NCBI GenBank assembly: GCA_024707205.1
Contig: JANQAD010000001.1
Coordinates: forward strand, 1,327,979 to 1,391,978
Source of the DNA: Demequina sp.
GTDB lineage: Bacteria > Actinomycetota > Actinomycetes > Actinomycetales > Demequinaceae
DNA length: 64,000 nt
Reading direction: 5' to 3'
The notes under the pieces were generated by a model. That model was not told the origin of the DNA. It searched no databases and saw only the letters and a program-made list of their open reading frames with translations. A program made the position numbers and the translations under genes. The first letter of the stretch is position 1. Each line of letters begins with the position of its first letter. This document shows, piece by piece, positions 4,910 through 64,000 of this stretch.

Positions 4910-4963
4910 GCGACGCTGCCGCCCGCTCGCCACAGCGTCGGGCCTCCCCGCTTCCATAACGTT

Positions 4964-4990
4964 TCGGTTACGCGGTCGCAACGTTTCGAG
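4964..4990. promoter_or_regulatory. Putative LacI-family operator pair upstream of cellobiose phosphorylase
   Basis: Two AACGTTTCG copies; the second lies in the near-palindrome TCGCAACGTTTCGA. Confidence 0.4.
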
Positions 4991-5045
4991 CCGCGCATTA
5001 CGCTTGGGCCAGTTGCACCCCCGTTCATCCTTAGGAAGGGATGTC

Positions 5046-7468
5046 ATGCAGTTCGGTCACTTCGACGACGAAGCGCGCGAATACGTCATCACGACGCCGC
5101 ACACCCCCTACCCATGGATCAACTACTTGGGTGCCCAGGACTTCTTTGGACTCGTCTCCCACATGGGGGGTGGTTACTGCTTCTACCGCGACGCGAAGAT
5201 GCGCCGCCTCACCCGCTACCGCTACAACAACATCCCCGTCGACGACGGCGGTCGCTACTTCTCGATCAACGACGGGGGCGACGTCTGGAGCCCCTCGTAC
5301 CGCCCGTACAAGACGGAGCTGGACTCCTTCGAGACCCGCCACGGCATGGGCTACACGCGCATCACCGGATCGCGGAACGGTGTTGAGGCGTCCGTGCTGC
5401 TGTTCGTGCCCGTGGACGTGAATGCGGAGATCCACCAGGTCACGCTGACCAACACTTCGGGTGCGGCCAAGAGCCTGCAGCTGTTCAGCTTCATCGAGTT
5501 CTGCCTGTGGAACGCGGAAGACGACCAGACCAACTACCAGCGCAATCTCAACATCGGCGAGGTTGAGGTCGAGGACGGCGCGATCTACCACAAGACCGAG
5601 TACCGCGAGCGTCGCGACCACTACGCGGTCTACGGCGTGAACGCGCCCGTGGCGGGCTTCGACACCGACCGCGACTCGTTCCTCGGCTACGGCAACGGCT
5701 TCGACGACGCCGTGGTGCCCCACACCGGCAAGGCCACGAACTCGGTCGCCTCTGGCTGGTACCCCATCGCGTCCCACCAGCTTTCCGTCGACCTAGCTCC
5801 CGGCGAGTCCAGGCAGTTCACGTTCGTGCTCGGCTACCTCGAGAACCCAGCGGACGAGAAGTGGGAGGCCCCTGGCGTCGTCAACAAGAGTGGGGCCCGC
5901 GAGCTGCTCGCCCGCTTCGCGACGAACGAGGCAACCGACGCCGAGTTCGCGAAGCTCAACGCCTACTGGGACAACCTGCTGGGCTCGTACACCGTGGAAT
6001 CCGGCGACGACAAGCTCAACCGCATGGTCAACATCTGGAACCAGTACCAGTGCATGGTGACCTACAACATGTCGCGCTCCGCCTCGTACTTCGAGACGGG
6101 CATCGGCCGCGGCATGGGCTTCCGGGACTCCAACCAGGACCTGCTCGGCTTTGTGCACCTGGTCCCCGAGCGTGCCCGCGAGCGCATCATCGACATCGCG
6201 TCCACGCAGTTCGAGGACGGCTCCGCATACCACCAGTACCAGCCGCTCACCAAGCGCGGGAACAACGCGATCGGCTCTGGCTTCAACGACGACCCGCTGT
6301 GGCTCATCGCGGGCGTGGCCGCGTACGTCAAGGAGACCGGCGACTGGGACATCCTCAAGGAGCTCGTCCCCTTCGACAACGACGAATCCCGCTCCACGAG
6401 CCTCATGGATCACCTCAAGCGCTCGTTCGACCACCCATTGAAGTTCATGGGCCCTCACGGGCTGCCGCTCATCGGGCGCGCGGACTGGAACGACTGCCTC
6501 AACCTCAACTGCTTCTCCACCACCCCAGGGGAGTCGTTCCAGACCACCGAGAACCAGCAGGGCGGGGTCGCGGAGTCTGTGTTCATCGCCGGGATGTTCT
6601 GCGCCATCGGGCCCGATTACGCCGCCATGGCTCGGCACTTTGGCGACGACGGTGAGGCGGAACGCGCCGAGTACGCCGTGCAGCAGATGCGCGAAGTGGT
6701 GCTCGAGCACGGCTGGGATGGCGCCTGGTTCCGCCGCGCGTACGACTACTACGGCAACGTGGTGGGCGGCGAGGAGAACGCCGAGGCGAAGATCTGGATC
6801 GAGCCGCAGGGCTACTGCATCATGGGTGGCATCGGCGTGGAGGACGGCAAGGCCGTCCAGGCGCTGGATTCCGTGCGCGAGCGGCTCAACACCCCGCACG
6901 GAATCGTGCTGCTCAACCCCGCCTTCACCGAGTACCACGTGGAGCTGGGCGAGGTCTCGAGCTACCCGCCCGGGTACAAGGAGAATGCCGGCATCTTCTG
7001 CCACAACAACCCGTGGATCATCATCGCGGAGACCATCGTTGGCCGGAACGAGTACGCGTGGGAGTACTACAAGCAGATCACGCCCGCGTACCGCGAGGAG
7101 ATCTCCGAGGTTCACCGCCTCGAGCCCTACGTCTACGCGCAGATGATCGCGGGCAAGGACGCGCAGCGTCACGGCGAGGCGAAGAACTCGTGGCTCACCG
7201 GCACCGCGTCGTGGAACTTCGTGACCGTCTCGCAGTACCTGCTCGGCGTGCGTCCCGACTACGACGGTCTTGTCGTTGACCCGTGCATCGGCGCCGAGGT
7301 CGGCGAGTTCACCGTGCGCCGCCAGGTGCGGGGGCCACGTACGAGATCCACGTGACCAACTCGGGAAGCGGTCGGGCGTCGCTCACGGTCGACGGCGTGG
7401 CCGTCGAGGGCAACCACGTGCCGTACGCGCCGGCGGGCTCTGTTGTGAAGGTGGAGGCGACGGTCTAG
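5046..7468 (+). CDS. cbp: Cellobiose phosphorylase (GH94), with a 1-nt frameshift near 7330-7334
   Basis: [48 protein letters not shown]; closely resembles Cellulomonas-type CBP; C-terminus GATYEIHV... continues in another frame. Confidence 0.88.
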
Positions 7469-7474: not shown

Positions 7475-7519
7475 CCAGCCACAGCGTCGGGCCGGGTTCC
7501 AGCCCGACGCTGTGGCTGG
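7475..7519. repeat. Perfect 18-bp hairpin made of two inverted copies of the CCACAGCGTCGGGC motif
   Basis: CCAGCCACAGCGTCGGGC-cgggttcca-GCCCGACGCTGTGGCTGG, 6 nt after the cbp stop. Confidence 0.9.
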
Positions 7520-7535: not shown

Positions 7536-7558
7536 ACCCCCGCGACTGCGGGGGTTTT
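7536..7558 (+). terminator. Intrinsic terminator-like hairpin
   Basis: ACCCCCGC-gact-GCGGGGGT followed by TTT. Confidence 0.65.
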
Positions 7559-7574: not shown

Positions 7575-9325
<1,751 letters not shown>

Positions 9326-9363
9326 CCACAGCGTCGGGCAGAGGGGCGGCCTACGCTGGAAGG

Positions 9364-9990: not shown

Positions 9991-10002
9991 GGGCCCGCTG
10001 TT

Positions 10003-12634: not shown

Positions 12635-12655
12635 CATGCCCGACGCCACGGCGGG

Positions 12656-13917: not shown

Positions 13918-14556
13918 ATGCCCTTGATTCACCTGGTGCGTCACGGTCACGTCCATAATCCGGACAAGATCCTGTACGGCCGCCTCCCGGAGTTTCGCCT
14001 GTCCGACGCTGGCGAGGCCATGGCGCGCGCCGTCGCCGAGCACTTTGTGCGGCAGGGCACCGATGTTGGCCGGGTGGTCGCGTCGCCTCTGCTCAGGGCT
14101 CAGCAGACGGCGGCGCCGATCGCCGAGGCGTACGGCCTGCCCGTGGACACCGACGAGCGGCTCATCGAGGCCGCGAATGCGTACGAGGGCGGCAAGGTCC
14201 AGTCGGGCCCCAAGGACTTCATCCACCCGCGCAACTGGTGGCTGTTGCGAAACCCTGCGCGGCCATCCTGGGGAGAGCCCTACCGCGAGCAGGAGGCGCG
14301 CATGTGGGCCGCTATCCGTGACGCCGCGGCCGCGACGCCTGACCACGACACCGTTATGGTCTCCCACCAGCTGCCCATCTGGGTGGCGCGCATGAGCTTC
14401 GAGAAGCGCCGGTTCCTGCACGACCCGCGCTCGCGTGAGTGCGGACTGGCATCGGTCACGAGTTTCGATGTCTCTCCCGATGGCGAGGTGGGCGCGATGT
14501 TCTACGCGACTCCCGCCGCGCACGTCGAGGTGCCGAAGCACGGGGGAGCCGAGTGA
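13918..14556 (+). CDS. Histidine phosphatase family protein (Rv0525-like)
   Basis: HLVRHG, SPLLRAQQT, VSHQLPIW. Confidence 0.9.
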   Translation: MPLIHLVRHGHVHNPDKILYGRLPEFRLSDAGEAMARAVAEHFVRQGTDVGRVVASPLLRAQQTAAPIAEAYGLPVDTDERLIEAANAYEGGKVQSGPKDFIHPRNWWLLRNPARPSWGEPYREQEARMWAAIRDAAAATPDHDTVMVSHQLPIWVARMSFEKRRFLHDPRSRECGLASVTSFDVSPDGEVGAMFYATPAAHVEVPKHGGAE

Positions 14557-15104: not shown

Positions 15105-15832
15105 GCGGCACCGTCCTCACCGGCTCGCTGCTGCTCGCCATCCCCATCGCCATCCTCGCGGGCCTCGTGAGCTTCGCGTCGCCGTGCGTGGTGCCGCTCG
15201 TCCCCGGCTACCTGGGATACGTGAGCGGCATGGCCGGTGCGGACGCCAAGCGCTCGCGGCCGCGCCTCGTGCTCGGGGTGCTGCTGTTCATCGCGGGCTT
15301 CAGCGCGGTGTTCATCGCGCTCAGCGTTGTCGTCACGGCGCTCGGAGCCCAGGTGCAGGCCCAGTTGGACGTCATCACGCGCATCCTCGGCGTGGTCGTG
15401 ATCCTCATGGGCCTCGCGTTCATGGGCGCCGTTCCGTTCCTCCAGGCGGAACGCCGCCTGCACGTCTCGCCTCGCGCGGGGCTGTGGGGCGCTCCCGTGC
15501 TCGGCATCGCGTTTGGGCTCGGTTGGGCGCCCTGCATCGGCCCGACGCTGTCAGCAGTTTTGGCGCTCGCCCTCACCGAAAGCTCGCAGGCCAGGGGCAT
15601 TCTGTTGGCAGTTGCGTATTGCCTTGGGCTTGGGCTGCCGTTTCTCGCGCTCGCGTTCTGGATTGAGCACTCGTCGAAGGTTCTTGGCTGGCTTCGTCGC
15701 CACCGCCTTGGGCTGATGCGCTTTGGCGGGGCGATGCTCATCGTGCTCGGAGTGCTGCTGGTCACGGGGCTGTGGGGCTCGCTCACGAACCTCCTCCAGG
15801 GCTGGATCGACGGCTTCTGGACGGCCGTCTAG
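15101..15832 (+). CDS. ccdA: Cytochrome c biogenesis protein CcdA
   Basis: SFASPCVVPLVPGYL, GWAPCIGPTL. Confidence 0.93.
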   Translation: MSGTVLTGSLLLAIPIAILAGLVSFASPCVVPLVPGYLGYVSGMAGADAKRSRPRLVLGVLLFIAGFSAVFIALSVVVTALGAQVQAQLDVITRILGVVVILMGLAFMGAVPFLQAERRLHVSPRAGLWGAPVLGIAFGLGWAPCIGPTLSAVLALALTESSQARGILLAVAYCLGLGLPFLALAFWIEHSSKVLGWLRRHRLGLMRFGGAMLIVLGVLLVTGLWGSLTNLLQGWIDGFWTAV

Positions 15833-17433: not shown

Positions 17434-18401
17434 TCGACATGCAGGCGCTCAGCGTCGCCGCCCTGTGGGGCGCCACGATCCTGTACGCCGTGGCCATGGT
17501 CGCGTATTCGATCCGCCTTGCCGCGGAGGCAGACGCGCGGGTCCAGGTGAAGCGGCTGGCGACGGTTGGAGCGGGGGCAGGGACAGCGTCGGGCGGGGAG
17601 GACCTGACCGCGGCGCAGTTGCCCCAGCGCGCCAGGAAGGCGCTCGGCATCGCGCGGTCGGCAACCCTGGTGGGCTTCGTCCTCAACGTCATCGGCGTGA
17701 TCGCGAGGGGCATCGAGGCGGGCCACGTGCCGTGGTCCAACATGTACGAGTACACGATCAGCGGCTCCATGGTGGCGGTGGGGATCTTCCTTGGAGTGCA
17801 GCGCAAGCGGGACGTGACGTTCCTTGGCGCCGGCATCACGGGACTCGCGACCATCGTGATGGGCCTCGGCCTGACCGTCCTCTACGCAGAGCCGGAGTCG
17901 CTGCCGCCCGCGCTGCAGTCGATGTGGCTCATCATCCACGTGTCGATCGCGACGATCTGCTCTGGCATCTTCGGGGTCGCGTTCATCGTGACGTCGCTGC
18001 AGCTGCTCAAGGACTACCGCGACAGCGGCACCCCGCGCACGCAGTGGTCGCGCGGCCGTGCCCTCCGCTTCCTAGAGGCCGTGCCCAAGGCGGACGTGCT
18101 CGAGGCGCTCGCGTTCCGCCTCATCGCCGTCGGCTTTGTGCTGTGGACCTTCACGGTCATGGCCGGCGCCATCTGGGCCGAGCACGCCTGGGGCCGCTAC
18201 TGGGGCTGGGACCCCAAGGAGGTCTGGAGCTTCGTGATCTGGGTGGTCTACGCCGCGTACCTGCACGCGCGCACCACTCAAGGCTGGGCCGGCCGCAAGA
18301 GCGCGTACCTGGCTCTCGTCGGCTTCGGCTGCCTCATCATCAACTTCACCCTGGTCAACTACGTCTTCCAGGGTCTCCACACGTATGCGCCGGGGCAGTA
18401 G
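17430..18401 (+). CDS. ccsB: Cytochrome c biogenesis protein CcsB/ResC
   Basis: PWSNMYEY, IHVSIA, WAEHAWGRYWGWDPKE tryptophan-rich motif. Confidence 0.95.
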   Translation: MIDMQALSVAALWGATILYAVAMVAYSIRLAAEADARVQVKRLATVGAGAGTASGGEDLTAAQLPQRARKALGIARSATLVGFVLNVIGVIARGIEAGHVPWSNMYEYTISGSMVAVGIFLGVQRKRDVTFLGAGITGLATIVMGLGLTVLYAEPESLPPALQSMWLIIHVSIATICSGIFGVAFIVTSLQLLKDYRDSGTPRTQWSRGRALRFLEAVPKADVLEALAFRLIAVGFVLWTFTVMAGAIWAEHAWGRYWGWDPKEVWSFVIWVVYAAYLHARTTQGWAGRKSAYLALVGFGCLIINFTLVNYVFQGLHTYAPGQ

Positions 18402-19950: not shown

Positions 19951-20247
19951 ATGAGAGTTCTCGCCTACTGGGCCGCGCGGCTCGGCATCTTCCTCGCCAT
20001 CGCGGCCTTCCTGTGGTGGGTGGTCAAGTGGCAGGACCTGATCTCGCTGATCGCGGCGTTCATCCTCGGCTGGCTCGTGAGCTACCTGGTGCTTCCGGGG
20101 CTGCGACGCGACGCCGCCGCGCAGATGGACGGGTGGATGACGCGGTCGGAGAAGGGCATTCGCGAGGCGGACGCCGAGGAGGACGCCGAGATCGGCGCAC
20201 TGCCCGACGCTGGCTCAGGTAAGCCCGAAGACCGGCGGCAGGACTAG
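19951..20247 (+). CDS. DUF4229-like small membrane protein
   Basis: Y...RLGIF, two TM helices, acidic DAEEDA tail; usual men-cluster neighbour. Confidence 0.7.
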   Translation: MRVLAYWAARLGIFLAIAAFLWWVVKWQDLISLIAAFILGWLVSYLVLPGLRRDAAAQMDGWMTRSEKGIREADAEEDAEIGALPDAGSGKPEDRRQD

Positions 20248-23912: not shown

Positions 23913-23947
23913 GGGGCAAGCGTAGGCCGCGACGTAGACTGCGCGAC

Positions 23948-25132: not shown

Positions 25133-25219
25133 TGGGGCGGGATGGGGACGCGCTAGGGCCCGCCAAGCACCAGGCGGCACCCACCGGCCCGACGCCATGG
25201 CCCCGTCACGCGCAACGGT

Positions 25220-41925: not shown

Positions 41926-42584
41926 CGTACGACGGGCCGACGCTCGAACAGCTCACGGCGGACGCGCAGGAGATCATCGCGCGCTACCCGGTGCCGCGCT
42001 CCGCGCTGCTGCCGCTGCTGCACCTGGTGCAGTCCGTGGACGGCTTCGTGAGCCCGGACGGCATCGCATTCTGCGCGGAGCTGCTCGACCTGAGCGCGGC
42101 CGAGGTCAGCGCCGTCGCCACGTTCTACACGCAGTACAAGCGCCGCCCGAACGGCGAGTACCAGGTGGGAGTCTGCACGAACACGCTATGCGCGATCATG
42201 GGCGGCGACCGCATCTGGGACGAGCTCAGCGGTCACTGCGGGGGTCGGCAACGGCGAGACCACCGCCGACGGTTCCATCACGCTCGAGCGCATCGAGTGC
42301 AACGCGGCCTGCGACTACGCGCCCGTGATGATGGTCAACTGGGAGTTCTTCGACAACCAGACCCCCGAGTCCGCGAAGCAGGTCGTCGACGACCTGCGTG
42401 CGGGCAAGGACGTCACCCCCACGCGCGGCCCCAACAAGGTGCAGACCTTCAAGCAGGTGGAGCGCGTGCTCGCCGGCTTCGAGGATGGCCTCGCCAACGA
42501 GGACCAGGGCGCCGGCGGCCCGACGCTGGCCGGGCTTGAGGCCGCGAAGGCGGCCGGGTGGAAGGCACCGAAGGGGGCAAAGGC

Positions 42585-43914: not shown

Positions 43915-46412
43915 CGACCACTGCGGACAAGGCCGCCGCGAGCTCGCAGGCCGTCGAGACCGTCACCCTGACGATTGACGGCACCGAGGTCACCGTCCCC
44001 AAGGGCACCCTGATCATCAGGGCCGCGGAGCAGATGGGCATCGACATCCCGCGCTTCTGCGACCACCCGTCGCTCGAGCCGGTGGGCGCGTGCCGCCAGT
44101 GCCTCGTCGACGTCGCGAGCCCCGGCCCGGACGGCAGCCTGCGCGCGTTCCCCAAGCCCCAGCCGTCGTGCACGATGACGGTCACCGAGGGCATGGTGGT
44201 CAACACGCAGCACACCTCCGCGGAGGCCGACCGCGCCCAGAAGGGCGTGATGGAGCTGCTGCTCATCAACCACCCGCTCGACTGCCCCGTATGTGACAAG
44301 GGAGGCGAGTGCCCGCTGCAGAACCAGGCGATGAGCAACGGCCGCCCGGAGTCCCGCTTCGTCGACGTCAAGCGCGTCTTCGAGAAGCCTCTCGCCCTCA
44401 GCAGCGAGATCCTGCTCGACCGCGAGCGCTGCATCCTGTGCCAGCGCTGCACCCGTTTCTCCAAGGAGATCGCCGGAGACGCCTTCATCGACCTGCAGAA
44501 CCGTGGAGCGATGCAGCAGATCGGCACCTTCGACGAGGACGTGCTCGACTTCGACGGCTACCGCCCCATCGGCGTCGCGGCCGAGGACGAGTCTGGCAAG
44601 GCCTTCTCCTCGTACTACTCGGGCAACACGGTGCAGATCTGCCCCGTCGGCGCCCTCACGAGCGCGGCGTACCGCTTCCGCTCGCGCCCCTTCGACCTGA
44701 TCTCGAGCCCGGGAATCTCCGAGCACGATTCCTCCGGCAGCGCGATCCGCACCGACCACCGCCGCGGCCACATCCTGCGTCGCCTCGCCCACGAGGACCC
44801 CGTGGTCAACGAGGACTGGATCACGGACAAGGATCGCTTCGCGTTCACGTGGCAGAACCTCGACGACCGGATCACCCGCCCCTTGGTGAGGGTTGACGGC
44901 GAGCTCGTCGAGGCCTCGTGGCCCGACGCTGTTGCGGCGGCGGCTGCCGGCATCAGAGCGTCGCTTGCTGTCGATGGGAAGAGCGGCAAGAAGCCAAAGG
45001 GCGCGGCAGTCCTGCCCGGTGGTCGCGTCACCTTCGAGGACGCCTACGCGTACCAGAAGTTCGCCCGCGTCGTGCTGGGCACCAACGACGTCGACGCGCG
45101 CACGCGCGTCGCGAGCGACGAGGAGCTCGCGTTCCTCGGCCACCACGTTGCCGGCCGCGGGCTTGGAGTCACGTTCGGCGAGCTCGAGAAGGCTCCCGCC
45201 GTTCTGCTCGTCGGCTTCGAGCCCGAGGACGAGGGCGGCGTCGTGTTCTTGCGCCTCAAGAAGGCCGCCCACAAGGTGTTCGCGGTCGCGCCGTGGCTCA
45301 GCCGCGGCAACGAGAAGCTCGGCGCCACGCTCATCCCCACGCGCCCCGGAGACGAGGGCGCCGCTCTGGGCGACCTCCCCGCCGACGCCGTGGCCGCGCT
45401 TGGCGAGGCCGGCTCCGTGATCATTGTTGGAGAGCGCGCGGCCGGAGCGCCCGGAGCCCTCACCGCGGCACTCGCGCTCGCCAAGAAGTCGGGCGCCAAG
45501 CTTGCGTGGATCCCGCGTCGCGCGGGCGAGCGCGGCGCCGTCGAGGCCGGCGCGCTGCCCACGCTCCTTCCCGGCGGGCGTGACGTCACGAAGGCCGCGG
45601 CCCGCTCGGCGGTGGCGAAGGCATGGGGCGTCGACGACCTTCCCGCGCACGCCGGCCGCAGCGCGGCCGACATCATCGCCGCGGCGGCGAAGGGACAGCT
45701 CGGCGCGCTCGTCATCGGCGGCGTGACCCCCTCGGACCTCACCTCGGACCTCACAAAGGCCCTGGAAAAGACCGAGTTCGTAATCAGCCTCGAGGTTCGC
45801 CGCGGCGAAGTCTCTGAGTACGCGGACGTCGTGCTGCCGGTCGCGCCGCCCTCGGAGAAGCCCGGCACCTTCCTCAACTGGGAGGGCCGCTTGCGCTCCT
45901 TCGCCACGGCCATCCCCACGGATGCGCTCAGCGACCACCGCGTTCTCGACGTGCTGGCCCGCGAGCTCGGCGTCAACCTGGGCACCGGCACCGTCAGCGA
46001 GATCTCGGCGGAGATCAGCGGGCTCGGGATCGACGACTCCGCCCGCGTGGCGGCACCAAAGGTCAAGGCGAGCCCGGCACCGAAGGCGGCAGCAGCGTCG
46101 GGCGGGCTTGTGCTCGCGACGTGGCACCAGCTGGTGGACGAGGGTTCGCTGCAGGACGGCGAGCCCTTCCTCGCGGGCACGGGCCGCACCTCCGTGGCGC
46201 GGATGTCCGCCGCGACGGCTGCCGAGTTTGGCGCCGAGACCGCGGTATCGCTCAAGGGCGCCGCGCGCGCGAGCATCAACCTCCCGGTCGTGATCACCGA
46301 AATGCCCGACGGCGTTGTCTGGGTGCCCGCGAAGTCGCCTTCGTCGTGGGTTGCCAGGGATCTTGGGGTCGAGGCCGGTTCCGAGATCACCGCGAAGGGG
46401 GTGTCCGCGTGA
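43911..46412 (+). CDS. nuoG: NADH-quinone oxidoreductase subunit G
   Basis: IPRFCDHP, GACRQC, HPLDCPVCDKGGEC, RCILCQRC. Confidence 0.96.
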
Positions 46413-47911: not shown

Positions 47912-48608
47912 CCACGACGAGCGCTGGCAAGTGAACCGCGAGCGCGACGGCGCCACCACGCCCTTCGAGTCCAACTTCCCCAAGAAGGGGCAGATCGGCG
48001 AGGCGCTCGCCCCCGTGGCCGGGTTCGGCGTGACGCTGCGCAACTTCTTCCGGCCGGTGGTGACCGAGCAGTACCCGTACAAGAAGACGCCGCCCATGCC
48101 GCGGTACCACGGCCGTCATCAGCTCAACCGCCACCCGGATGGCCTCGAGAAGTGCATCGGCTGCGAGCTGTGCGCGTGGGCCTGCCCCGCGGACGCGATC
48201 TACGTCGAGGCGGACTCCAACACGCCAGACGCGCAGTTCAGCCCCGGTGAGCGCTACGGCCGCGTGTACCAGATCAACTATCTGCGGTGCATCTTCTGCG
48301 GGCTGTGCATCGAGGCGTGCCCCACTCGCGCGCTCACGATGACCACCGAATACGAGCTCGCCGGTCCCACTCGTGAGGGGCTCATCTTCGAGAAGCAGGA
48401 CCTGTTGGCCCCGATGGGAGCGAACATGCTTGCGGCGCCGCACCCGATGGTGCCCGGCACCACCGACGGCGACTACTACCGCGGCGACGTCACCGGAGCG
48501 GTCGACGCACAGGTGGAGTGGGTGCGCGAGCACCGCCCCGAGGACCCGACGCTGCCGGAGAACGCAACCACAGCGTCGGCCAGTGCCAAGGCCGGGGGTG
48601 CCGCGTGA
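47904..48608 (+). CDS. nuoI: NADH-quinone oxidoreductase subunit I
   Basis: [12 protein letters not shown] and [12 protein letters not shown] ferredoxin motifs. Confidence 0.96.
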
Positions 48609-51512: not shown

Positions 51513-52993
51513 TGTTCCCCATCCTCACCGTCCTCGTGGTGCTCCCCGTGGTGGGGGCCGGGGTGCTGTTCCTGCCTCAGGCCCGGGCCAAGTCGCGCGA
51601 GATCGCGCTGTTCTTCGCGCTTGCGGAGCTCATCATCGCCGCCAACCTGTTCCTGCGCTTCGACCGCAGCCAGGCCGGCACCATCCAGTTCGCCGAGACG
51701 CATTCGTGGATCCCCCAGATCGGCACCAGCTGGGCGCTCGGCGTCAACGGCATCGGCCTGTCGCTCGTGGTGCTCAGCGCGATCCTGGTCCCCGTCGCCA
51801 TCCTCTCGGCGTGGCGCGACGATAAGGACGAGAAGCGTCGGGCCACGTACTTGGCCCTCTTGCTCTCAAGCCAGGCGTTCATGATCGGCATCTTCGCGGC
51901 ACGAGACGTCTTCCTGTTCTACGTGCTGTTCGAGGCGATGCTGATCCCGATCTACTTCCTCATCGGCTACTTCGGCGGACTGCAGCGCCGCTATGCAGCG
52001 GTGAAGTTCCTGATCTTCTCGCTCGTGGGAGGGCTGGTGATGCTCGTGGGCGTGATCGCGCTGTACGTCGCCGGTCCCGGCGGCGAGCAGGGCTTCCTCA
52101 CGGACAAGCTCACGGGACTCTCGCTCTCGACGAGCACGGAGCGCCTGCTGTTCCTCGCGTTCTTCATCGCGTTCGCCATCAAGGCGCCGATGTTCCCTGT
52201 GCACACGTGGCTGCCCACCGTCGCGGAGAGCGCGCGACCGTCGACGACCGCGCTGCTCGTGGCCGTGCTGGACAAGGTGGGCACCTTCGGCATGCTGACG
52301 CTGTGCCTGGTGCTGTTCCCAGGTGCGGCGCACTGGGCGGCTCCCGTCATCATCGTCTTCGCGGTGATCTCGGTGCTCTACGGCGCGATCCTCGCGATCG
52401 GCCAGGACAACATGCTCAAGCTCGTGTCGTTCACCTCGGTGAGCCACTTCGGCATCATGATCATCGGCATCTTCGCGTTCGCGCAGACGTCGGTCACCGG
52501 CGCCGCGCTCTACATGTTCAACCACGGCCTGTCCACGGGCGCGCTGTTCTTCGCGGTCGCGTACCTCGCGAAGCGTCACGGCACCGTCTCCATCAAGGCG
52601 TTCGGCGGTCTGCAGAAGATCGCCCCTGTCCTCGCAGGCACCTTCCTCATCATCGGCCTCAGCTCGCTGTCGCTGCCGGGCCTGTCGCCGTTCATCTCGG
52701 AGATCCTGGTGTTCATCGGCGCCTACCCGGTGGTGCCCGTCGCGATCTGGTTCGCCGTGGTGGGAGTGGTGCTCGCCGCGCTGTACATCCTGCTGATGTA
52801 CAAGCGGGTGTTCACCGGCCCGGCACCCGAGGCCATGGAGGGCACGCGCGACCTCTCGGTGCGCGAGCGCCTCGTGACGTGGCCGCTCATTGCCGCGATG
52901 CTCGTGCTTGGCTTCGTGCCAGGGATCCTGCTAGGCGTGCTGCACGAGCCCGTCCATGACATCGTCACCATCGTTCAGGAGGCTGGCAAGTGA
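51509..52993 (+). CDS. nuoM: NADH-quinone oxidoreductase subunit M
   Basis: [25 protein letters not shown]. Confidence 0.95.
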
Positions 52994-55596: not shown

Positions 55597-56277
55597 ATGT
55601 CGAGCTCAACGGACCTGAACGGCGCGGACCGCTGGCGCGCGGTGGACGCCTACATCGAGGAGCACTACACGCAGTCCGACGCTGTGGCGGCCCGGGTGCT
55701 CCAGAACCAGCGGGATGCCGGGTTGCCGGACATCGCCGTGAGCCCCACCCAGGGCAAGCTGCTCTCCGTCCTCGCACGAGCCTGCGGGGCGCGCCGCGTG
55801 CTCGAGTTCGGCACGCTCGGGGGCTATTCGACGCTGTGGTTCGCCCGCGCCGTCGGACCGGAGGGCGCGGTGGTGAGTTTTGAGCTCGAGCTGCGCCACG
55901 CGGAGGTCGCGAGGGCGAGCCTCGCCCAAGCCGGCGTTGGCGACAGGGTCGAGGTGCGCGTCGGCCCGGCGGTCGCCAATCTGGGCACGCTCGAGTACGA
56001 CGAGCCGTTCGACCTGGTCTTCATCGACGCGGACAAGCCGAGCAACGTCGCGTATTACGAGGCCGCGATGAACCGCGTGCACGCGGGGACCGTGGTGATC
56101 GTCGACAACGTGGTGCGCGACGGCGGCCTCATCGAGGCGGACTCGCCGGACGACCGCATCCAGGGCTCGCGCGCGATCGTGGAGCGGATGGGCGCCGACC
56201 CGCGGGTCGAGGCCTCCGTGATGCAGACGGTCGGCTCCAAGTATTACGACGGGATTATCGTCGCGGTGGTGTTGTAA
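55597..56277 (+). CDS. Class I O-methyltransferase (CCoAOMT-like)
   Basis: VLEFGTLGGYSTLW, DLVFIDADK, VIVDNVV. Confidence 0.88.
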   Translation: MSSSTDLNGADRWRAVDAYIEEHYTQSDAVAARVLQNQRDAGLPDIAVSPTQGKLLSVLARACGARRVLEFGTLGGYSTLWFARAVGPEGAVVSFELELRHAEVARASLAQAGVGDRVEVRVGPAVANLGTLEYDEPFDLVFIDADKPSNVAYYEAAMNRVHAGTVVIVDNVVRDGGLIEADSPDDRIQGSRAIVERMGADPRVEASVMQTVGSKYYDGIIVAVVL

Positions 56278-56886: not shown

Positions 56887-58394
56887 ACACCATCGGTGAC
56901 GCCCTCAACCAGTCATTTGCGGCCGACGCTGCGCGTGAGAACACGCTCGACGCTCGCCGCGCGATCGGCGCGATCGGGCGCAGGCGTGCCGTCCGGGCGG
57001 CCGGCATGGGCACGGCGGCCGCGGTGGGGATCGGCGCCATGGGTGCCGTGTGGTGGTTCGCTCCGGGCGGGCGCTGGGCCAGCCCGGCGCAGCCTGCGCC
57101 CAGCACCCAATGCACGGACGCGCAGCTGTACCTGCCGCCCAACCCCGAGGCAATGGGCGACGTAGACCTGAAGTTCCGTGCCTATGTGGACCTGCGGCCC
57201 GGTTCGCCAACGGACGGCGTGGTGGTGGTGCGCCAGGACGGGACGCTGGTGAGAGTGGAACCAGGTGACGACGGCACGTACACCTACTTGGGCAACCCCA
57301 TCACGTTCCCGGACATGCCGGATGAGATCAAGTTCCGACCCATGGTGATGGACTTCGAGGCCACCGGCGGAGGCGGCGACTATTGGGACGGCGTTAACCC
57401 GGTGACCAAGGACTACGCGTGGACCATGGTGCTTCCGGAGCAGGTGCCCGATGGCACCGACACCGCGCTCCTGTCGTCGACGCTGCGAATCGCGATGGAG
57501 CTAGGGGGTACGGGATACATTCCGGATTCCGTGCCGCACGGCGCGGTCGCCGACGAAGTCCTCACGACGACATCCGGCGAAACGGAAGAGGCGCGGTTGT
57601 CCGAGGGCGACCCTGGGTTCAGCACCGAGGGTCGTACGGACGTCGCCTCCGTGGCCCTCCGAGTCACTATGGCCGACGGCTCGTCCTTCGCGCTGGTGGC
57701 TAACCACCACGAGGTGGACCCGGCGCTGACGGCCTGCGCCTCGGCGTCCACGAGCGTCACAGCTACTCCCACGGGCAGCCCGGAACCAGCCGCCACGGGC
57801 CCGATCCCCGGTTCCTCGCCGGACCCCGGCGTCTCCCAAGGTGGTGTGCCTGAGGTGTTGGCCGGCCCCGAGTCCGCTGTGTTCGCGTGTGGGGCGGCGT
57901 TGCCGAATGACCTCGAGGGCACTCTGGGGCTGGACGTCGTGTGGGCGAGCGGCTCCGAGCCGCTCGGTGGCAGCGGGGTGCCGGGCACGTTCGACTTTGG
58001 CGCTGGCGGCATCATGGCCACCGGCGAGCTCAAGAGAGGCGAGGCGCAGCACGGAAACCTGGAGTCCTTTAACTGGGCGTCCAGTGGCACCGAAGGCCAG
58101 GAGTCCCTCGCCATCTACATGACGGCGGTGGCCGTCAAGGACGACACCGTGGTCGGGGTGGTGAACGTCTCAAGCGATCCGCCGCCGACAGAGGTCTTCA
58201 ACTTCGGCGGGCCGGGTTCAGACCCGACGCTGGAGAACGTGACCATGGCGATCAAGGACGTGGGCGAGCGGATGGAGCCGTGCCCCGGCTACGTGGAGCG
58301 TGAGCTCGAGGGCGCGACAACCGTTGCACTGCTCGGGACCGGCAGCGTTGGCGGCCCGTATACCTTCGCGTGGACTCCGGTGACCGTGGACTAG
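56883..58394 (+). CDS. Putative anti-sigma/membrane partner with two-part ectodomain
   Basis: ATGA overlap; RRRAVR then TM helix; two domains joined by a Pro/Ser/Thr linker. Confidence 0.7.
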   Translation: MNTIGDALNQSFAADAARENTLDARRAIGAIGRRRAVRAAGMGTAAAVGIGAMGAVWWFAPGGRWASPAQPAPSTQCTDAQLYLPPNPEAMGDVDLKFRAYVDLRPGSPTDGVVVVRQDGTLVRVEPGDDGTYTYLGNPITFPDMPDEIKFRPMVMDFEATGGGGDYWDGVNPVTKDYAWTMVLPEQVPDGTDTALLSSTLRIAMELGGTGYIPDSVPHGAVADEVLTTTSGETEEARLSEGDPGFSTEGRTDVASVALRVTMADGSSFALVANHHEVDPALTACASASTSVTATPTGSPEPAATGPIPGSSPDPGVSQGGVPEVLAGPESAVFACGAALPNDLEGTLGLDVVWASGSEPLGGSGVPGTFDFGAGGIMATGELKRGEAQHGNLESFNWASSGTEGQESLAIYMTAVAVKDDTVVGVVNVSSDPPPTEVFNFGGPGSDPTLENVTMAIKDVGERMEPCPGYVERELEGATTVALLGTGSVGGPYTFAWTPVTVD

Positions 58395-58511
58395 TACCCG
58401 GCCACGGACTCATCGGAAGATGTAACGCAAAGGGCCTCGTGCGATGCCAACCGCGCGTGCTAGCGTCGGCGACATCCAGGGCCATTCGGGGGAATGGTGC
58501 GGAGGATCGAC

Positions 58512-61293: not shown

Positions 61294-62277
61294 CTAGACG
61301 TTCTCCGCGAACTCCGGCTCAGCGTCGGGGTCGCCGCGGCGTGACCAGGCCCGCCACGAGTCGGCGGTGATGAGGATGAGCGCCACCCACACCAGGGCGA
61401 ACCCGATCCATCGTCCGGTGGGCATGGGCTCGTGGAAGTACCAGACCGCGAGCATGAACATCATCGTCGGCGCGATGTACTGGAGCAGCCCGGTGATGTT
61501 GAGCGGCAGCCTTGCAGCACCCGCCGCGAACAGCAGCAGCGCGCCCACCGTCGCGACGCCGGCGAACATGAGCAGCACGTCGTGGTGGAGGCCGAGACCC
61601 TCGGAGCCGCGCGCGCCAAAGGTCAGCGTCCCCCGTGCGCGCATCCAGAGGAGCGCGATGAGCGCGAACGGCGCCAGCACCATCGTCTCGACCGTGAGCC
61701 CGGTGACCGCGTCAACGGACGCGCCCACCCGCTTCTTGATGAGCCCGTAGAACCCAAAGGACAGCGCAAGCGCGAGCGAGATCCACGGCAGCTGGCCCAT
61801 CTCGAAGCCGATCACCGCTACGGCGACCGCCGCGACGACAACGGCAACGAGCTGCATCCGGCGCAGCCGCTCCCCAAGGAGCGTCACGCCGAGCGCCACG
61901 GTCACGAGCGGGTTGATGTAGTAGCCGAGCGAGGCCGACGCCACCTGGTCGCTCACCACCGCGTACACGTAGACGAGCCAGTTGAACGCGATCAGCACGG
62001 CGGCCAAGGCGAGCGTCCAGAACGTCTTGCGGTTCGCCAGCACCACTCGCAGGCGCCCCCAACTCCGCGCCGCGCCCACGATGACGAGGCACACCACGAG
62101 CGACCACACCGCCCGCTGTGCCGTGATCTCGATCGCGCTCGCGGGGATGAGCGCGTGCATGAGCAGCGGGAACAGGCCCCAGACGAGGTAGGCCGACGCC
62201 CCAAAGATCAGGCCGCTGCGGTCCAGTGAACTGCTGCGGTCTATGGAACTGCTGCGGTCCTGCGGCGCGCTCGTCAC
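61294..62277 (-). CDS. rarD: EamA-family transporter RarD
   Basis: YLVWGLFP, ASLGYYINPL, FGFYGLIKK, LLQYIAPT. Confidence 0.93.
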   Translation of the reverse strand: MTSAPQDRSSSIDRSSSLDRSGLIFGASAYLVWGLFPLLMHALIPASAIEITAQRAVWSLVVCLVIVGAARSWGRLRVVLANRKTFWTLALAAVLIAFNWLVYVYAVVSDQVASASLGYYINPLVTVALGVTLLGERLRRMQLVAVVVAAVAVAVIGFEMGQLPWISLALALSFGFYGLIKKRVGASVDAVTGLTVETMVLAPFALIALLWMRARGTLTFGARGSEGLGLHHDVLLMFAGVATVGALLLFAAGAARLPLNITGLLQYIAPTMMFMLAVWYFHEPMPTGRWIGFALVWVALILITADSWRAWSRRGDPDAEPEFAENV

Positions 62278-62376
62278 TCAAGCATTCTCGCAGGCCCGAC
62301 GCCCGGGCCGGGTTCGCGCGCGGGTGCCAGTGGCGCGCGGGCTGGCCCCGCAATATGGCCCGACGCCTTGACCGGC

Positions 62377-63729
62377 TCAGATGGTCAGGTACCCGTCCTC
62401 GCCGGTGCCGGGCACGGCCGCGCGGGCCGTGGCGGCCGCGAGGGTGTTGCCGTCCTGTGGGTCGACGAGGCAGAAGGCTCCCGTGCGGCGGTGGCTGCCG
62501 TAGTCCTCGATCGCGAGCGGCTGCGCGAGTTGAAGCGCGACCACCCCGATGTCGTTGAGGCCCAGCTGGAGATCCTCGCCGGGGATGATCGAGGCGTCGA
62601 GGGTGCCCCCTGGAAGCGAGATGTCGAGCTTGCCCTCGATCCCGATGACCATGGCCTGCACCAGTGACGAGCCGTGCTGCACGAGCACCCGATCGCGGAT
62701 CCGCAGGGGCCGCTCCGAGAGCCACGCCACGTGGGCGTGGAAGTTCTTCACCGCGAGCGCCGCGTCTCCCGCGGCGCTCAGCAGGTCGCCGCGCGCCACG
62801 TCGATGTCGTCGGCGAGCCGCACCGCGATCGAGGCGCCCGCTGGCGCGGAGGTGAGCGGGCCGTCGGCCGTATCGATGCCGGCCACCGTGGTGCGGCGGC
62901 CCGAGGGCTGGACCACGACGGCGTCGCCGACCCGGATGGTGCCTTCGGCGACCTGGCCGGCGTAGCCCCTGTACTCGCGGTGCTCGGGGCTGACGGCCGC
63001 GTCTTGGGGCCGGAGCACGTACTGGACGGGGAAGCGCCAGCCGCCTTGGGCGATGGCGGCGAGCTCATCGGCGCCGGGAACGGTCTCGAGCAGCTCGAGC
63101 ACCGTCGGGCCCTCGTACCAGGGGGTGCGGGCGGAGCGCTCCACCACGTTGTCGCCCTCGAGCGCGGAAACGGGGATGGCGACGACGTCCGGCATGCCGA
63201 GCTTTGCCGCGTGCGCGGCGACGTCGCCGGCGATCTGCTCGAACGGGTCGCGAGCGAAGCCGATGAGGTCGATCTTGTTGACGGCGACCACCACGTGCGG
63301 CACGCGCAGGAGCGCGGCTACCGCCAGGTGACGGCGGGTCTGCTCCACGACCCCGTGGCGCGCGTCCACCAGCACGATGAGCGCGTCCGCGGTGGAGGCT
63401 CCGGTCACGGTGTTCCGCGTGTACTGAACGTGGCCGGGGCAGTCCGCGAGGATGAAGGTGCGGTTGGGAGTCGAGAAGTAGCGGTAGGCGACGTCGATCG
63501 TGATGCCCTGTTCGCGCTCGGCGCGCAGGCCATCCGTGAGGAGCGCGAGGTCGACGGTCTCGGCACCTCGCGCGCGCGAGACGCGCTCGACGGCCTCGTA
63601 GGCGTCGGCGAGGATCGACTTGGTGTCAAAGAGCAGGCGCCCAACGAGGGTGGACTTGCCGTCGTCGACGGAGCCCGCGGTGGCGAACCGGAGCAGCGAC
63701 GTTGTGCGCGTTTCAGTGAGTACGCTCAC
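62377..63729 (-). CDS. cysN: Sulfate adenylyltransferase subunit 1
   Basis: TAGSVDDGKSTLVGRLL, AEREQGITIDVAYRYF, DCPGH, NKID; GTG start overlapping the restored cysD TAG. Confidence 0.93.
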   Translation of the reverse strand: MSVLTETRTTSLLRFATAGSVDDGKSTLVGRLLFDTKSILADAYEAVERVSRARGAETVDLALLTDGLRAEREQGITIDVAYRYFSTPNRTFILADCPGHVQYTRNTVTGASTADALIVLVDARHGVVEQTRRHLAVAALLRVPHVVVAVNKIDLIGFARDPFEQIAGDVAAHAAKLGMPDVVAIPVSALEGDNVVERSARTPWYEGPTVLELLETVPGADELAAIAQGGWRFPVQYVLRPQDAAVSPEHREYRGYAGQVAEGTIRVGDAVVVQPSGRRTTVAGIDTADGPLTSAPAGASIAVRLADDIDVARGDLLSAAGDAALAVKNFHAHVAWLSERPLRIRDRVLVQHGSSLVQAMVIGIEGKLDISLPGGTLDASIIPGEDLQLGLNDIGVVALQLAQPLAIEDYGSHRRTGAFCLVDPQDGNTLAAATARAAVPGTGEDGYLTI

Positions 63730-64000
63730 TAGAAATACCCCCTCCTTCTTGCGGTCCTCCATGGCTGCCTCGCTGAGGCGATCGTCGGCGCGGGTCGCGC
63801 CGCGCTCGGTGACGCGCGTGGCGGCCACCTCGGCGATGACCTCGGCGACCGAGACTGCGGACGACTCAACCGCTCCCGTGCACGAGGCGTCCCCAACGGT
63901 GCGGTACCGAACCGTCTTGGTGACCACAGCGTCGGACTCCGTGACTGTCACCGCGGGGTGCGGGGTCAGCCACATGCCATCGCGCTGGAACACGGGGCGC
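63729..64000 (-). CDS. cysD: Sulfate adenylyltransferase subunit 2 (C-terminal part; extra base at 63738-63742)
   Basis: VRYRTVGDASCTGA, TERGATRADD, MEDRKKEG(YF) canonical terminus. Confidence 0.93.

Follow-up and report, generated by a model that had tools for sequence, protein, structure and literature searches.

In the 64-kb stretch of DNA from a soil/rhizosphere Demequina (Micrococcales) that we analysed, hereafter the window, a non-palindromic word of 14 bases, CCACAGCGTCGGGC, is strongly over-represented, and our comparisons support the view that this word looks and evolves like a DNA uptake sequence. That is, sequence hallmarks described so far only from two proteobacterial families are found here in an actinobacterium. 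The DNA sampled consisted of the window and about 250 kb from relatives.

In an unbiased k-mer census, the top 10-mer, 12-mer and 14-mer of the window were all this word. The 12-mer ACAGCGTCGGGC occurs in ten exact copies, five on each strand; all ten had been reported, correctly placed, in the first-pass annotation, and dinucleotide-preserving shuffles of the window averaged 0.05 copies and never gave more than 1. The same annotation had counted 23 copies of the 9-mer core CAGCGTCGG (12 plus, 11 minus). Its claim of over-representation held, but it had missed a minus-strand copy at 55676, and the true number is 24, compared with 2.83 expected (sd 1.94, largest 9). An order-3 Markov model predicts 0.002 copies of the full 14-mer, of which there are 6, and 0.56 copies of the 10-mer AGCGTCGGGC, of which there are 18. 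Unrelated high-GC bacterial DNA, 1.28 Mb in all, had the 10-mer at a rate of 0.40 per 64 kb, so the enrichment of the 10-mer in the window over comparable DNA is about 45-fold. The mean spacing of copies in the window is 6.4 kb for the 12-mer and 3.6 kb for the 10-mer, and the word occupies about 0.2-0.3% of the DNA.

We then shuffled synonymous codons within each gene, leaving non-coding DNA unchanged. The genic copies numbered 6 for the 12-mer, 13 for the 10-mer and 18 for the 9-mer core, and the values expected from this codon null were about 0.15, 1.4 and 2.4, respectively. A fall to expectation under such a null, which had been named beforehand as what would speak against the signal, thus did not occur, since the genic counts lie far above it. 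The excess was robust to all four nulls (dinucleotide, Markov, empirical and codon-preserving). The mismatch spectrum, another check that had been suggested, gave 2, 7 and 11 genic sites with 0, 1 and 2 mismatches, where about 0, 0.9 and 4.9 were expected; at 3 mismatches there was no excess. The mismatches were confined to positions outside 7-12 of the word; that is, the core CGTCGG(G)C is invariant and the 5' part, CCACAG, is softer.

Within genes, exact 14-mers lie antisense in an ECF sigma-factor gene (30900..30913, minus; read as R-P-D-A-V) and in sense in a menJ-like geranylgeranyl reductase gene (38638..38651, plus; T-T-A-S-G-R). Copies of the 12-mer are GCACAGCGTCGGGC in gdhA (9034..9047, minus, antisense; T-P-D-A-V), TGACAGCGTCGGGC in ccdA (15540..15553, minus, antisense; G-P-T-L-S), GGACAGCGTCGGGC in ccsB (17581..17594, plus, sense; G-T-A-S-G-G, with a rare ACA codon) and CAACAGCGTCGGGC in nuoG (44921..44934, minus, antisense; W-P-D-A-V). 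The 9-mer core is found in a phosphoglycerate-mutase-like gene (14003..14011, minus) and in the frameshift-split menE region (23777..23785, plus). Further copies are CGCCAGCGTCGGGC in the start codon region of an ALO-type FAD oxidase gene (34803..34816, plus, antisense; M-P-D-A-G), GGCCAGCGTCGGGC in nuoE (42518..42531, minus, antisense; G-P-T-L-A), CAGCAGCGTCGGGC in nuoG (46090..46103, plus, sense; A-A-S-G-G) and GAAGCGTCGGGC in nuoM (51833..51844, plus, sense; E-K-R-R-A), which includes the 10-mer at 51835-51844. The one-mismatch form CCACAGCGTCGGAC lies in an O-methyltransferase gene (55674..55687, minus) and at the 3' end of cysD, which runs in frame into cysN (63924..63937, plus, antisense; E-S-D-A-V). 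Core copies GCGCAGCGTCGGCC (56921..56934, minus) and CTCCAGCGTCGGGT (58222..58235, minus; D-P-T-L-E) share the gene at 56700-58394, and GCTCAGCGTCGGGG is antisense in an EamA transporter gene (61317..61330, plus).

The genic copies occupy all six frame/strand combinations and stand 21:9 antisense versus sense relative to the mRNA. The word forces rare codons, namely GCT, used for 5.3% of alanines, and ACA, used for 3.0% of threonines. These observations agree with the first-pass annotation, which had noticed the rare codons and the TASG, PDAV and PTL readings in several frames, and whose gene names proved right.

Non-coding DNA makes up only 7.5% of the window, but it contains four of the six full 14-mers, 4 of the 10 12-mers (P=0.005) and 10 of 27 9-mers (P=1e-5). 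Most of these copies lie directly 3' of a stop codon and have an inverse copy as partner; as had been claimed, the longest ones are among them. One 14-mer (4930..4943, plus) lies 21 nt past the stop codon (TAG 4907-4909) of the strain-variable gene g5 and has a degenerate inverse partner, GCGACGCTG, at 4910-4918. Another (9326..9339, plus) abuts the gdhA stop codon (TAG 9323-9325) and has a weak inverse partner, CCTACGCTGG, at 9350-9359. Two more (7479..7492, plus, 10 nt past the true GH94 stop codon, TAG 7466-7468; 7502..7515, minus) are the 5' and 3' arms of a perfect hairpin at 7475-7519, with an 18-bp stem, CCAGCCACAGCGTCGGGC, and a 9-nt loop. A search of the metagenome collection gave no second occurrence of this palindrome. 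In the relative L211, the counterparts of its two arms are 1.8 kb apart, that of 7502 being upstream of a greA-like gene; the palindrome apparently arose when a deletion joined two copies.

Close inverted pairs had also been noted before, and we found three against 0.32 expected (P=0.005), mostly of the '+-' type. Of the pairs within genes, two are close: a '+-' pair of degenerate copies at the nuoC start (39870..39905; CCCCAGCGTCGGAC, 39870-39883, plus, and CCATACCGTCGGGC, 39892-39905, minus) and a '-+' pair in nuoI (48544..48581; CGGCAGCGTCGGGT, minus, and CCACAGCGTCGGCC, plus). A further '+-' pair, with one mismatch in each arm, lies in the 5' part of a solute-binding-protein gene (1339..1422; CCACATCGTCGGGC, 1339-1352, plus, and CCACGGCGTCGGGC, 1409-1422, minus). 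Downstream of a HAD hydrolase gene, CCGTGGCGTCGGGC (12638..12651, minus) and its inverse copy GCGACGCTGGTGG form an outer stem that encloses a canonical terminator hairpin; this stem is kept in L211, where the arm corresponding to CCGTGGCGTCGGGC matches the 14-mer exactly. Single copies are seen as AGCCAGCGTCGGGC (20202..20215, minus), which starts on the last stop-codon base of the gene at 20215-21831 (minus), as CCATGGCGTCGGGC 20 nt past the menB stop codon (25187..25200, minus) and as TCAAGGCGTCGGGC 6 nt past the cysN stop codon (62358-62371, minus), each in sense to its gene; CCCGGGCGTCGGGC (62294-62307, minus) is likewise in sense to cysN.

The comparison with relatives clarified how the copies arise and persist. 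Orthologous alignments showed that the genic copies were created in situ, through point substitutions within conserved genes: they align base for base with motif-less orthologs, without insertion, and for the nuoG 12-mer (44921) the ortholog series approaches the motif stepwise. In the 95% relative, 9 of 12 10-mers were kept, compared with a background of 23% (P=2e-4), and retention between close relatives was about three times that of ordinary k-mers. The gdhA genic 12-mer is conserved in L211, L212 and L213, and the 14-mer past the gdhA stop codon in L213 and L212 but lost in L211. The menJ-like 14-mer is conserved in L122 and L123, with unrelated sequence at its place in D. aurantiaca and D. 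capsici; the nuoM copy is common to L122 and L123 and absent from the same two species; and the nuoE (42518) and nuoG (46090) copies are conserved in L122. In the distant strain NBRC 110052, which has the same core, retention of the 10-mer was at background and copies stood at different places. In these comparisons, copies once made are shown to persist far more often than the sequence around them; on a longer time scale the word is shown to disappear and to be re-created elsewhere in the chromosome.

The sister-taxon check that had been proposed earlier showed that sister lineages use a related word of their own. In the window's clade and NBRC 110052 the enriched word is GCGTCGGGC; in D. aurantiaca and D. 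flava it is GCATCGGCC, which differs from the window's word by two bases. The two are mutually exclusive, each being absent from the other's group, and each exceeded the codon shuffle in 300 of 300 trials; GCATCGGCC is, however, only a 9-mer, and its excess relative to the codon null is 2-4-fold, measured at a single 21-kb locus in each species. The window's own word was not found in other Demequina species.

We tentatively propose that the word may be a lineage-specific, uptake-sequence-like tag of self-DNA, as with the DNA uptake sequences of Neisseriaceae (DUS) and Pasteurellaceae (USS). Its features agree with those of DUS in Neisseria and USS in Pasteurellaceae, and they speak against Chi/KOPS signals, REP/MITE decay and codon artefacts. 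The first-pass annotation had offered a DUS/USS-like reading, and all of its predictions that we tested at the level of sequence were borne out. They concerned balanced, non-polar strands, use of every reading frame, creation of copies by point substitution within core genes, an invariant core with soft flanks, close '+-' inverted pairs at the 3' ends of genes, divergent but related words in sister lineages, and an excess that outlasts a codon-preserving null. It is supported that the word looks and evolves like an uptake sequence; that it is one we infer. The driver would be a DNA-level process that passes on word-bearing alleles preferentially, most likely natural transformation, in which the uptake machinery would bind the word and homologous recombination would follow (molecular drive). 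In Micrococcales this machinery would be Tad/Flp pili with ComEA/ComEC, as in Micrococcus luteus, a naturally transformable member of the same order (PMC6370729). Receptor specificity would have diverged among lineages, from GCGTCGGGC to GCATCGGCC. In this species the core CGTCGG(G)C is extended to CCACAGCGTCGGGC. No competence or pilus genes are present in the 64-kb window, and in the papers we consulted, the only accounts of sequence-specific uptake concern Neisseriaceae and Pasteurellaceae, with none for M. luteus.

It is less likely that the word is a dispersed binding site for a lineage-specific DNA-binding protein unconnected with uptake, such as a nucleoid-organising factor, or a 'self' mark recognised by a nuclease of repair or defence, which would protect as Chi does but with no replication polarity, with selection acting on the density of sites rather than on their position. 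A co-evolving protein reader would predict maintenance with turnover, strand symmetry, an invariant core with soft flanks and lineage versions, and a density of one copy per 3.6-6.4 kb resembles that of E. coli Chi, about one per 4.5 kb, more than that of DUS. However, the dispersed architectural sites known to us are either palindromic (matS, NBS, SBS, parS) or strand-polar (Chi, KOPS, SRS), and the word is neither. Moreover, selection on hundreds of individually weak sites would be hard to sustain without drive, and '+-' hairpin pairs past stop codons are not predicted.

A functionless mutational by-product, in which sequence-biased repair or modification of the very-short-patch type, coupled to a methyltransferase or glycosylase, turns near-matches into the word, is distinctly unlikely. 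The in-place origin by point substitution and the enriched variants with 1-2 mismatches would fit it, and a lineage-specific word would fit a mobile modification system. Cyanobacterial HIP1 (GCGATCGC), an 8-bp palindrome, spreads within genes by the same route and in a lineage-dependent manner; it is, like the word, short, hyper-abundant and of unproven function. The word differs in being asymmetric, longer and present as inverted pairs at gene ends. Its contiguous 10-14 bp exceed known recognition lengths, all methyltransferase and Vsr-type specificities known to us being shorter, and an enrichment of at least 45-fold is far beyond known repair-driven biases. The window contains no methyltransferase/repair gene pair; its sole candidate, a DUF559/REase-like gene, is of a kind common among actinobacteria.

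We think it improbable that the word serves primarily in RNA, that is, as 3'-UTR stem-loops (terminators or stabilisers) or as a site for an RNA-binding protein, with the genic copies secondary. Besides the strong non-coding enrichment and the outer stem around the HAD terminator, the orientation of the post-stop copies speaks for it: sense copies number seven in the window and three in relatives, 0-26 nt past the stop codon (about 174 nt for the HAD copy), and single post-stop copies are nearly all in sense, which hints at an additional RNA-level role. In L211, the GH94 motif pair is predicted to form a T-tailed, terminator-like hairpin built on the motif, with two predicted G.U pairs. On the other hand, about 60% of the exact 12-mers are genic, the genic copies are 10-40-fold over the codon null and preferentially retained, their antisense majority is inexplicable by an RNA element, and no Rfam family matches. 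Because co-option of uptake sequences as terminators has been described for Neisseria and Haemophilus, an RNA role is more readily regarded as secondary.

A Chi-like recombination hotspot or a KOPS/AIMS-like chromosome-orienting signal is more improbable still. The word resembles these octamers in being over-represented, asymmetric, G-rich and read at the DNA level, in its Chi-like density and in its variation among lineages. However, the core is split 12+/12- with the strands interleaved in a window of mostly one transcriptional direction, a Chi-like 75% skew is rejected (P=0.007), in line with the balance claimed earlier, and no polarity was seen in the relatives either. Furthermore, known Chi and KOPS are 5-8 bp long, the word 10-14 bp, and '+-' hairpin pairs are foreign to them.

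Decayed REP/MITE-type mobile hairpin elements with half-sites scattered through the genome, an alternative raised by the first-pass annotation, are scarcely credible: REP/BIME and MITE repeats are likewise intergenic imperfect palindromes past stop codons, the window has the perfect palindrome and other intergenic inverted pairs, and copies border two strain-variable gene cassettes, but the unit is only about 14 bp, conservation ends at about 16-18 bp, the palindrome's arms are separate in L211, no RAYT or transposase gene was seen in the window, most copies are single and genic, and for the genic ones in-place substitution without insertion refutes such decay.

Compared with known systems, the word is closest to uptake sequences in its behaviour, not in its letters. 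Both types of Pasteurellaceae USS (AAGTGCGGT and ACAAGCGGT) are unrelated to it in sequence, and the word lacks their AT-rich flanking segments. As with USS, the coding copies keep to particular frames (PMC2817400) and a favoured orientation (PMC2346458), about half of the copies are in ORFs (34-65% for DUS/USS; PMC2817400), and different lineages carry one or the other of two related motif types. H. influenzae USS are 3-6 times denser than the word, whose density is near that of A. pleuropneumoniae USS (765 copies; PMC2817400); its '+-' bias, which rests on very few pairs, looks stronger than that of Pasteurellaceae. The Neisseriaceae DUS (AT-GCCGTCTGAA and dialects) is read by ComP, a minor type IV pilin described only for the Neisseria system (PMC6370729). 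Its sequence is also unrelated, the word having no CTG core; the word's host is a high-GC Gram-positive. DUS occupy 1-2.5% of the DNA; set against Neisseria DUS, the density of the word is lower by roughly 5-10 times, and against N. meningitidis DUS by 3-6 times. In contrast, the likeness in organisation is extensive. Both are non-palindromic, with 10-12 bp, occur equally on the two strands in genic and intergenic DNA, and form hairpins from close '+-' pairs 3' of genes, here one terminator-like; equal strands, '+-' pairs and terminator co-option are known for DUS and USS (PMC1852404). Finally, both combine an invariant core with softer flanks, and their versions in related lineages are 1-3 bases apart, just as DUS dialects share a conserved core (PMC3630211).

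In an unbiased census of all k-mers, the word ranked first in enrichment among the 10-mers, the 12-mers and the 14-mers of the window. The ten exact copies of the 12-mer ACAGCGTCGGGC counted by eye in the first-pass annotation were all confirmed where it had placed them, five on each strand, and dinucleotide-preserving shuffles of the window gave a mean of 0.05 copies and never more than one. The same annotation had counted 23 copies of the 9-mer core CAGCGTCGG. Its claim of over-representation on both strands held, and the true number is 24 (12 on each strand, with 2.8 expected), because a minus-strand copy at 55676 had been overlooked. Six copies of the full form CCACAGCGTCGGGC are present, where an order-3 Markov model predicts 0.002. 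The 10-mer AGCGTCGGGC occurs 18 times in the window and 0.40 times per 64 kb in the empirical control, 1.28 Mb of high-GC DNA from unrelated bacteria; that is, it is enriched 45-fold. Metagenome loci around gdhA (81% or less identity, no close relative) were used as control DNA only. Scaled up from the 64 kb to 2.54 Mb, these densities would correspond to about 400 copies of the 12-mer and about 700 of the 10-mer.

When 185,579 species genomes were scanned for the 14-mer, the matches listed included Demequina sp. NBRC 110052 together with single chance matches in unrelated taxa. The viral contigs scanned gave single chance matches only. Metatranscriptome runs contained 4-8% of words; they thus derive from other organisms and are unsuitable for mapping 3' ends.

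For the genic copies we used a null that shuffles synonymous codons gene by gene and leaves non-coding DNA as it is, with gene models taken from GC3 frames after correction of four homopolymer frameshifts. There were six genic 12-mers against about 0.15 expected, 13 genic 10-mers against about 1.4, and 18 genic 9-mer cores against about 2.4. That is, the genic counts did not fall to expectation but stayed far above this codon-preserving null. The use of rare codons by the motif copies, also proposed in the first-pass annotation, was borne out: GCT accounts for 5.3% of Ala codons and ACA for 3.0% of Thr codons, and each is used repeatedly.

The anatomy of the word was read from mismatch classes; a logo seeded with 7-mers was drowned in background sites. 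Genic sites with 0, 1, 2 and 3 mismatches to the 14-mer numbered 2, 7, 11 and 32, and the numbers expected under the codon shuffle were about 0, 0.9, 4.9 and 29, respectively. All mismatches of the sites with one or two mismatches fall in positions 1-6 (CCACAG) or at position 13, and positions 7-12 (CGTCGG) do not vary among them. Thus, the word consists of an invariant core and a softer 5' extension. It is not self-complementary, and the information in its flanks ends about two bases out. A second enriched variant, ACGCCGTCGGGC, has five copies against 0.1 expected (at 16263, 23045, 28126 and 46304, and one more). Two of its 5' positions are changed and the CGTCGGGC core is intact, which is evidence that CGTCGGGC is the strict core.

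Genic copies of AGCGTCGG occupy all six combinations of strand and frame, 21 antisense and nine sense to the gene, and are most often read as x-P-D-A, P-T-L and A-S-G. The outer 15% of genes holds 12 of the 30 genic sites against 9 expected, which is not a significant bias towards gene termini. The two strands of the motif alternate along the window, and a Chi-like skew of 75% was rejected (P=0.007). This interleaving means that the motif has no polarity within the window, and it is strand-balanced in the relatives' loci too.

We compared relatives through the nuo and gdhA neighbourhoods. When the genic sites were aligned with their orthologs, no insertions were found. At the nuoG site, for example, the window reads GCCCGACGCTGT, the 95% relative GCCCGACGCTAT, the 88% relative GCCCGACGCCAT, D. 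aurantiaca GCCCGATGCTCT and D. capsici GCCAGAGGCCAT. Judged from these alignments, the word is built up by substitutions within conserved coding sequence. The aligned DNA of the window and of the 95% relative is 83.5% identical, and that relative keeps nine of 12 10-mer copies, compared with 23% of ordinary 10-mers (P=2e-4), and 11 of 14 8-mer cores against a background of 30% (P=2e-4). In the 91-92% relatives, nine of 12 cores are kept (background 27%). Retention in NBRC 110052 is only two of seven, which equals the background although this species is itself rich in the core. High retention in close relatives with background retention in NBRC 110052 indicates active upkeep in the short term and replacement at new positions in the long term. 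It appears, then, that the density of copies matters and their location does not.

The form of the word differs among lineages. In 21 kb of the 95% relative the top 10-mer is AGCGTCGGGC (8 copies), and the 88-92% relatives carry GCGTCGGGC at 6-11 copies per 20 kb in three loci of 17-21 kb each. In NBRC 110052, whose NuoD is 83% identical, GCGTCGGGC is the top 9-mer (18 copies against 3.2 expected in 29 kb), and the base 5' of the core is usually C, not A. The top 9-mer of D. aurantiaca and of D. flava is GCATCGGCC, which differs from GCGTCGGGC by two bases and has 12 and 14 copies, respectively, in 21 kb each, balanced between the strands and in mixed frames. The background of GCATCGGCC is about one copy per 20 kb of control DNA and 0-4 copies per locus (18-64 kb) in the GCGTCGGGC lineage, and GCGTCGGGC has 0-1 copies in the 21-kb loci of D. 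aurantiaca, D. flava and D. capsici. The enrichment in each lineage exceeded the codon-preserving shuffle in 300 of 300 trials. GCGTCGGGC and GCATCGGCC exclude each other in the loci sampled (one or two loci, 21-29 kb per species). Nothing convincing as a version of its own was found in the sampled locus of D. capsici, where GCATCGGCT (7 copies) and GCCGTCGCC (14 copies) have counts similar to those in other Demequina.

Non-coding DNA makes up 7.5% of the window, yet it holds four of the six exact 14-mers, four of the ten 12-mers (P=0.005) and 10 of the 27 GCGTCGGGC copies (P=1e-5). Most intergenic copies lie 0-26 nt past a stop codon and are sense to the gene (g5, GH94, gdhA, the gene at 20215-21831, menB and cysN); the copy after the HAD gene lies about 174 nt past the stop. 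The orientation of copies after stop codons was assigned by hand from curated coordinates. These post-stop copies have an inverse copy, variably degenerate, 9-60 nt away. Close inverted pairs among sites with at most two mismatches number three against 0.32 expected (P=0.005), and their order is mostly '+-'. The copy after GH94 in L211, a relative's locus, has GCCCGGCGTTGTG as its pairing partner, with TTTTT following; folding predicts 15 pairs, including two G.U pairs, in a structure that resembles an intrinsic terminator. An unrelated terminator hairpin stands at the same place in a more distant relative, L212, which suggests that the word colonised a stem that is otherwise free in sequence. 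Downstream of the HAD gene, in both the window and L211, the word and its inverse form the outer stem around a canonical terminator. Rfam gave no RNA family at any motif site.

The window contains one perfect palindrome, at 7475-7519, with an 18-bp stem. In L211 (7698-9516) its two arms stand 1.8 kb apart and flank DUF4328 and DUF4349 genes, which are present in both L211 and L212 and missing from the window. From this comparison, the palindrome is most likely the product of a deletion that joined a + and a - copy, and not an inserted element. The perfect hairpin CCACAGCGTCGGGC-N(3-20)-GCCCGACGCTGTGG had no match in the metagenomes scanned. Next to the palindrome, a canonical hairpin with a T-run (CCCCCGC-N4-GCGGGGG-TTTT) lies at 7536-7558, upstream of a GreA/GreB-family gene, and is kept in L211 (9530-9552), where it has no gene before it on the same strand. 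This hairpin may act as a leader attenuator, as in the E. coli greA leader (GraL).

Other differences in gene content were also seen. The g5 gene (3758-4909; 383 aa, no family match) is strain-variable within the species. One metagenome contig has an empty site that joins 3723 to 4947 through 34 nt containing GCCCGACGCTGTGG, with the motif in the opposite orientation, and L211 and L212, which also lack g5, carry GCCCGACGCT at this spot. A 2.7-kb segment at 34828-37550, between an ALO-type oxidase and a menJ-like gene, encodes a phenol-hydroxylase-like FAD monooxygenase and an IclR regulator, is inserted relative to all sister loci and has no motif copy with fewer than three mismatches. Two of these three differences (g5 and DUF4328/DUF4349) are bordered by the word, and the third on one side only. 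We read no further meaning into such borders, because the intergenic DNA is rich in the motif anyway. At 9567-10012, starting about 240 bp downstream of the gdhA motif, three of four metagenomes share dense SNPs (about 3% divergence), and the neighbouring contigs differ by about 0.1%; such a mosaic suggests import by recombination between strains.

NuoD and GdhA place the host in Demequina (Demequinaceae, Micrococcales, Actinomycetota). The window NuoD shares 95% identity with its counterpart in a Demequina MAG and 78-85% with those of named species, and DNA nearly identical to the window is present in many metagenomes of soil and rhizosphere that come from separate studies. Housekeeping genes of the window include those for menaquinone synthesis, nuoA-N, cytochrome c maturation, Trk, cysD and cysN; GH94 phosphorylase, gdhA and ECF sigma factor genes are also present. 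A family 2A encapsulin shell gene (SrpI-like), followed by a cysteine desulfurase cargo gene, adjoins cysD and cysN (58494-61140). The sole Rfam match is a TPP riboswitch (RF00059; 1520-1642, minus strand; 59 bits) upstream of a solute-binding-protein gene (443-1501), which is probably a component of a thiamine-related ABC transporter. No competence, pilus, transposase or methyltransferase-endonuclease genes were found within the 64-kb window.

Single-base indels in homopolymers disrupt the frames of GH94, nuoE and nuoF and, it appears, those of menE (22889-23951) and of the N-terminus of the menJ-like GGR (37650-38117). A metagenome contig 99.2% identical to the window differs from it by single-base homopolymer indels at 38111, 42240 (nuoE) and 43391 (nuoF), and all four independent metagenomes examined at GH94 carry an extra G after 7329. 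These are therefore long-read assembly errors, not pseudogenes, and the true GH94 stop is the TAG at 7466-7468.

The only processes that, to our knowledge, fill genomes with a short asymmetric word by point substitution, regardless of strand, frame and gene, are uptake drive, selection for a dispersed protein-binding signal and sequence-biased repair. In the first, sequence-biased DNA uptake would act as a molecular drive that spreads the word. Such a drive predicts every feature seen, and each has a published precedent. We tentatively consider the word to be uptake-sequence-like, with a confidence somewhat short of even. We are more doubtful of the joint proposal that Demequina, a Gram-positive soil actinobacterium, has a genuine DNA uptake sequence system with a non-ComP receptor, barriers between versions and exchange of cassettes. 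In that system, the receptor would be something other than a ComP-type type IV pilin, presumably a Tad/Flp-pilus or ComEA component; the versions GCGTCGGGC and GCATCGGCC would restrict gene exchange among soil lineages that occur together; and the word would stand at the borders of strain-variable cassettes because these are exchanged by transformation. Points against uptake are that only about 0.3 Mb was sampled, that the occupancy is well below that of Neisseria, and that copies after stop codons follow a sense-orientation rule.

An array of binding sites with no role in uptake would belong to the second of these processes, and we consider it unlikely. A by-product of repair or modification would belong to the third, and sequence-biased repair is one proposal for HIP1; for the present word we regard it as quite improbable. 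The sense-orientation rule suggests an additional use at the RNA level, and it is very unlikely that the word is primarily an RNA-level element. A Chi/KOPS signal is contradicted by the direct test of the strands (12 copies on each, interleaved over the 64 kb) and has very little probability. Decay of REP or MITE elements, raised in the first-pass annotation as decayed REP half-sites, is hardly credible, as the alignments contradict it directly with genic copies made by substitution, the perfect palindrome apparently came from a deletion between two single copies, and the window holds no transposase.

A full-text literature search for the motif sequence returned only primers and other incidental matches, and none of the competence papers found dealt with Demequina. 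In the literature consulted, Neisseriaceae and Pasteurellaceae are the only families, both proteobacterial, for which uptake of DNA by specific sequence is described. As far as we know, it is treated as an oddity of the type IV pilus receptors of these two families, DNA of any sequence is taken up by the well-studied Gram-positive models, and an uptake system in Demequina, if true, would be the first outside Proteobacteria. Self-preferring transformation would then have evolved independently with a different machine and a different receptor, with species-level versions in soil bacteria. The word would be a genomic marker of active competence for Actinomycetota, where natural transformation is barely studied, and its addition to transforming DNA could improve genetic tractability. 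The idea is directly testable, since both versions occur in strains in culture, one in NBRC 110052 and the other in D. aurantiaca and D. flava. Should uptake play no part, what is left is an unexplained genome-wide signal that is actively maintained and lacks a described counterpart.

Micrococcus luteus, of the same order, is naturally transformable via Tad/Flp pili and ComEA/ComEC (PMC6370729); no uptake sequence was described for it in the literature searched. The Neisseriaceae DUS is of the GCCGTCTGAA type with an essential CTG core, and its dialects have this core in common (PMC3630211); CCACAGCGTCGGGC does not match it. The Pasteurellaceae USS has a AAGTGCGGT or ACAAGCGGT core and AT-rich 3' flanks, and the Demequina word has neither. 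As its sequence is unrelated to those of DUS and USS, it belongs to neither family. Other repeated words also differ from it: Chi and KOPS are strongly co-oriented with replication, whereas the Demequina word lacks strand polarity; REP/BIME elements and MITEs are inserted, intergenic palindromes of at least 20 bp linked to RAYT or transposase, whereas the genic copies here are substitutions; and HIP1, unlike this word, is palindromic. The word occupies about 0.2-0.3% of the DNA, compared with 1-2.5% in Neisseria, and is close to A. pleuropneumoniae in this respect. DUS and USS have equal strand counts and '+-' pairs (226 vs 5 pairs in N. meningitidis) and are co-opted as terminators (PMC1852404); uptake sequences show frame preferences, with 34-65% of copies in ORFs (PMC2817400), where one orientation is favoured (PMC2346458). 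Uptake sequences as a class are favoured in uptake or transformation by competent cells, whose uptake machine comprises a pilus, ComEA, ComEC and DprA, and they number hundreds to thousands, well beyond what composition predicts. The Demequina word is enriched in the 64 kb counted (10 copies against 0.05 expected, and 45-fold over control DNA), and its total copy number is an extrapolation. It shows the hallmarks of equal strands, substitution-made copies in conserved genes in several frames, and '+-' pairs as terminator hairpins at gene ends, the terminator being predicted. Lineage dialects with a common core fit as well, on 21-29 kb per species. We claim no membership for the word, and we think it possible, with some reserve, that it behaves like DUS and USS.
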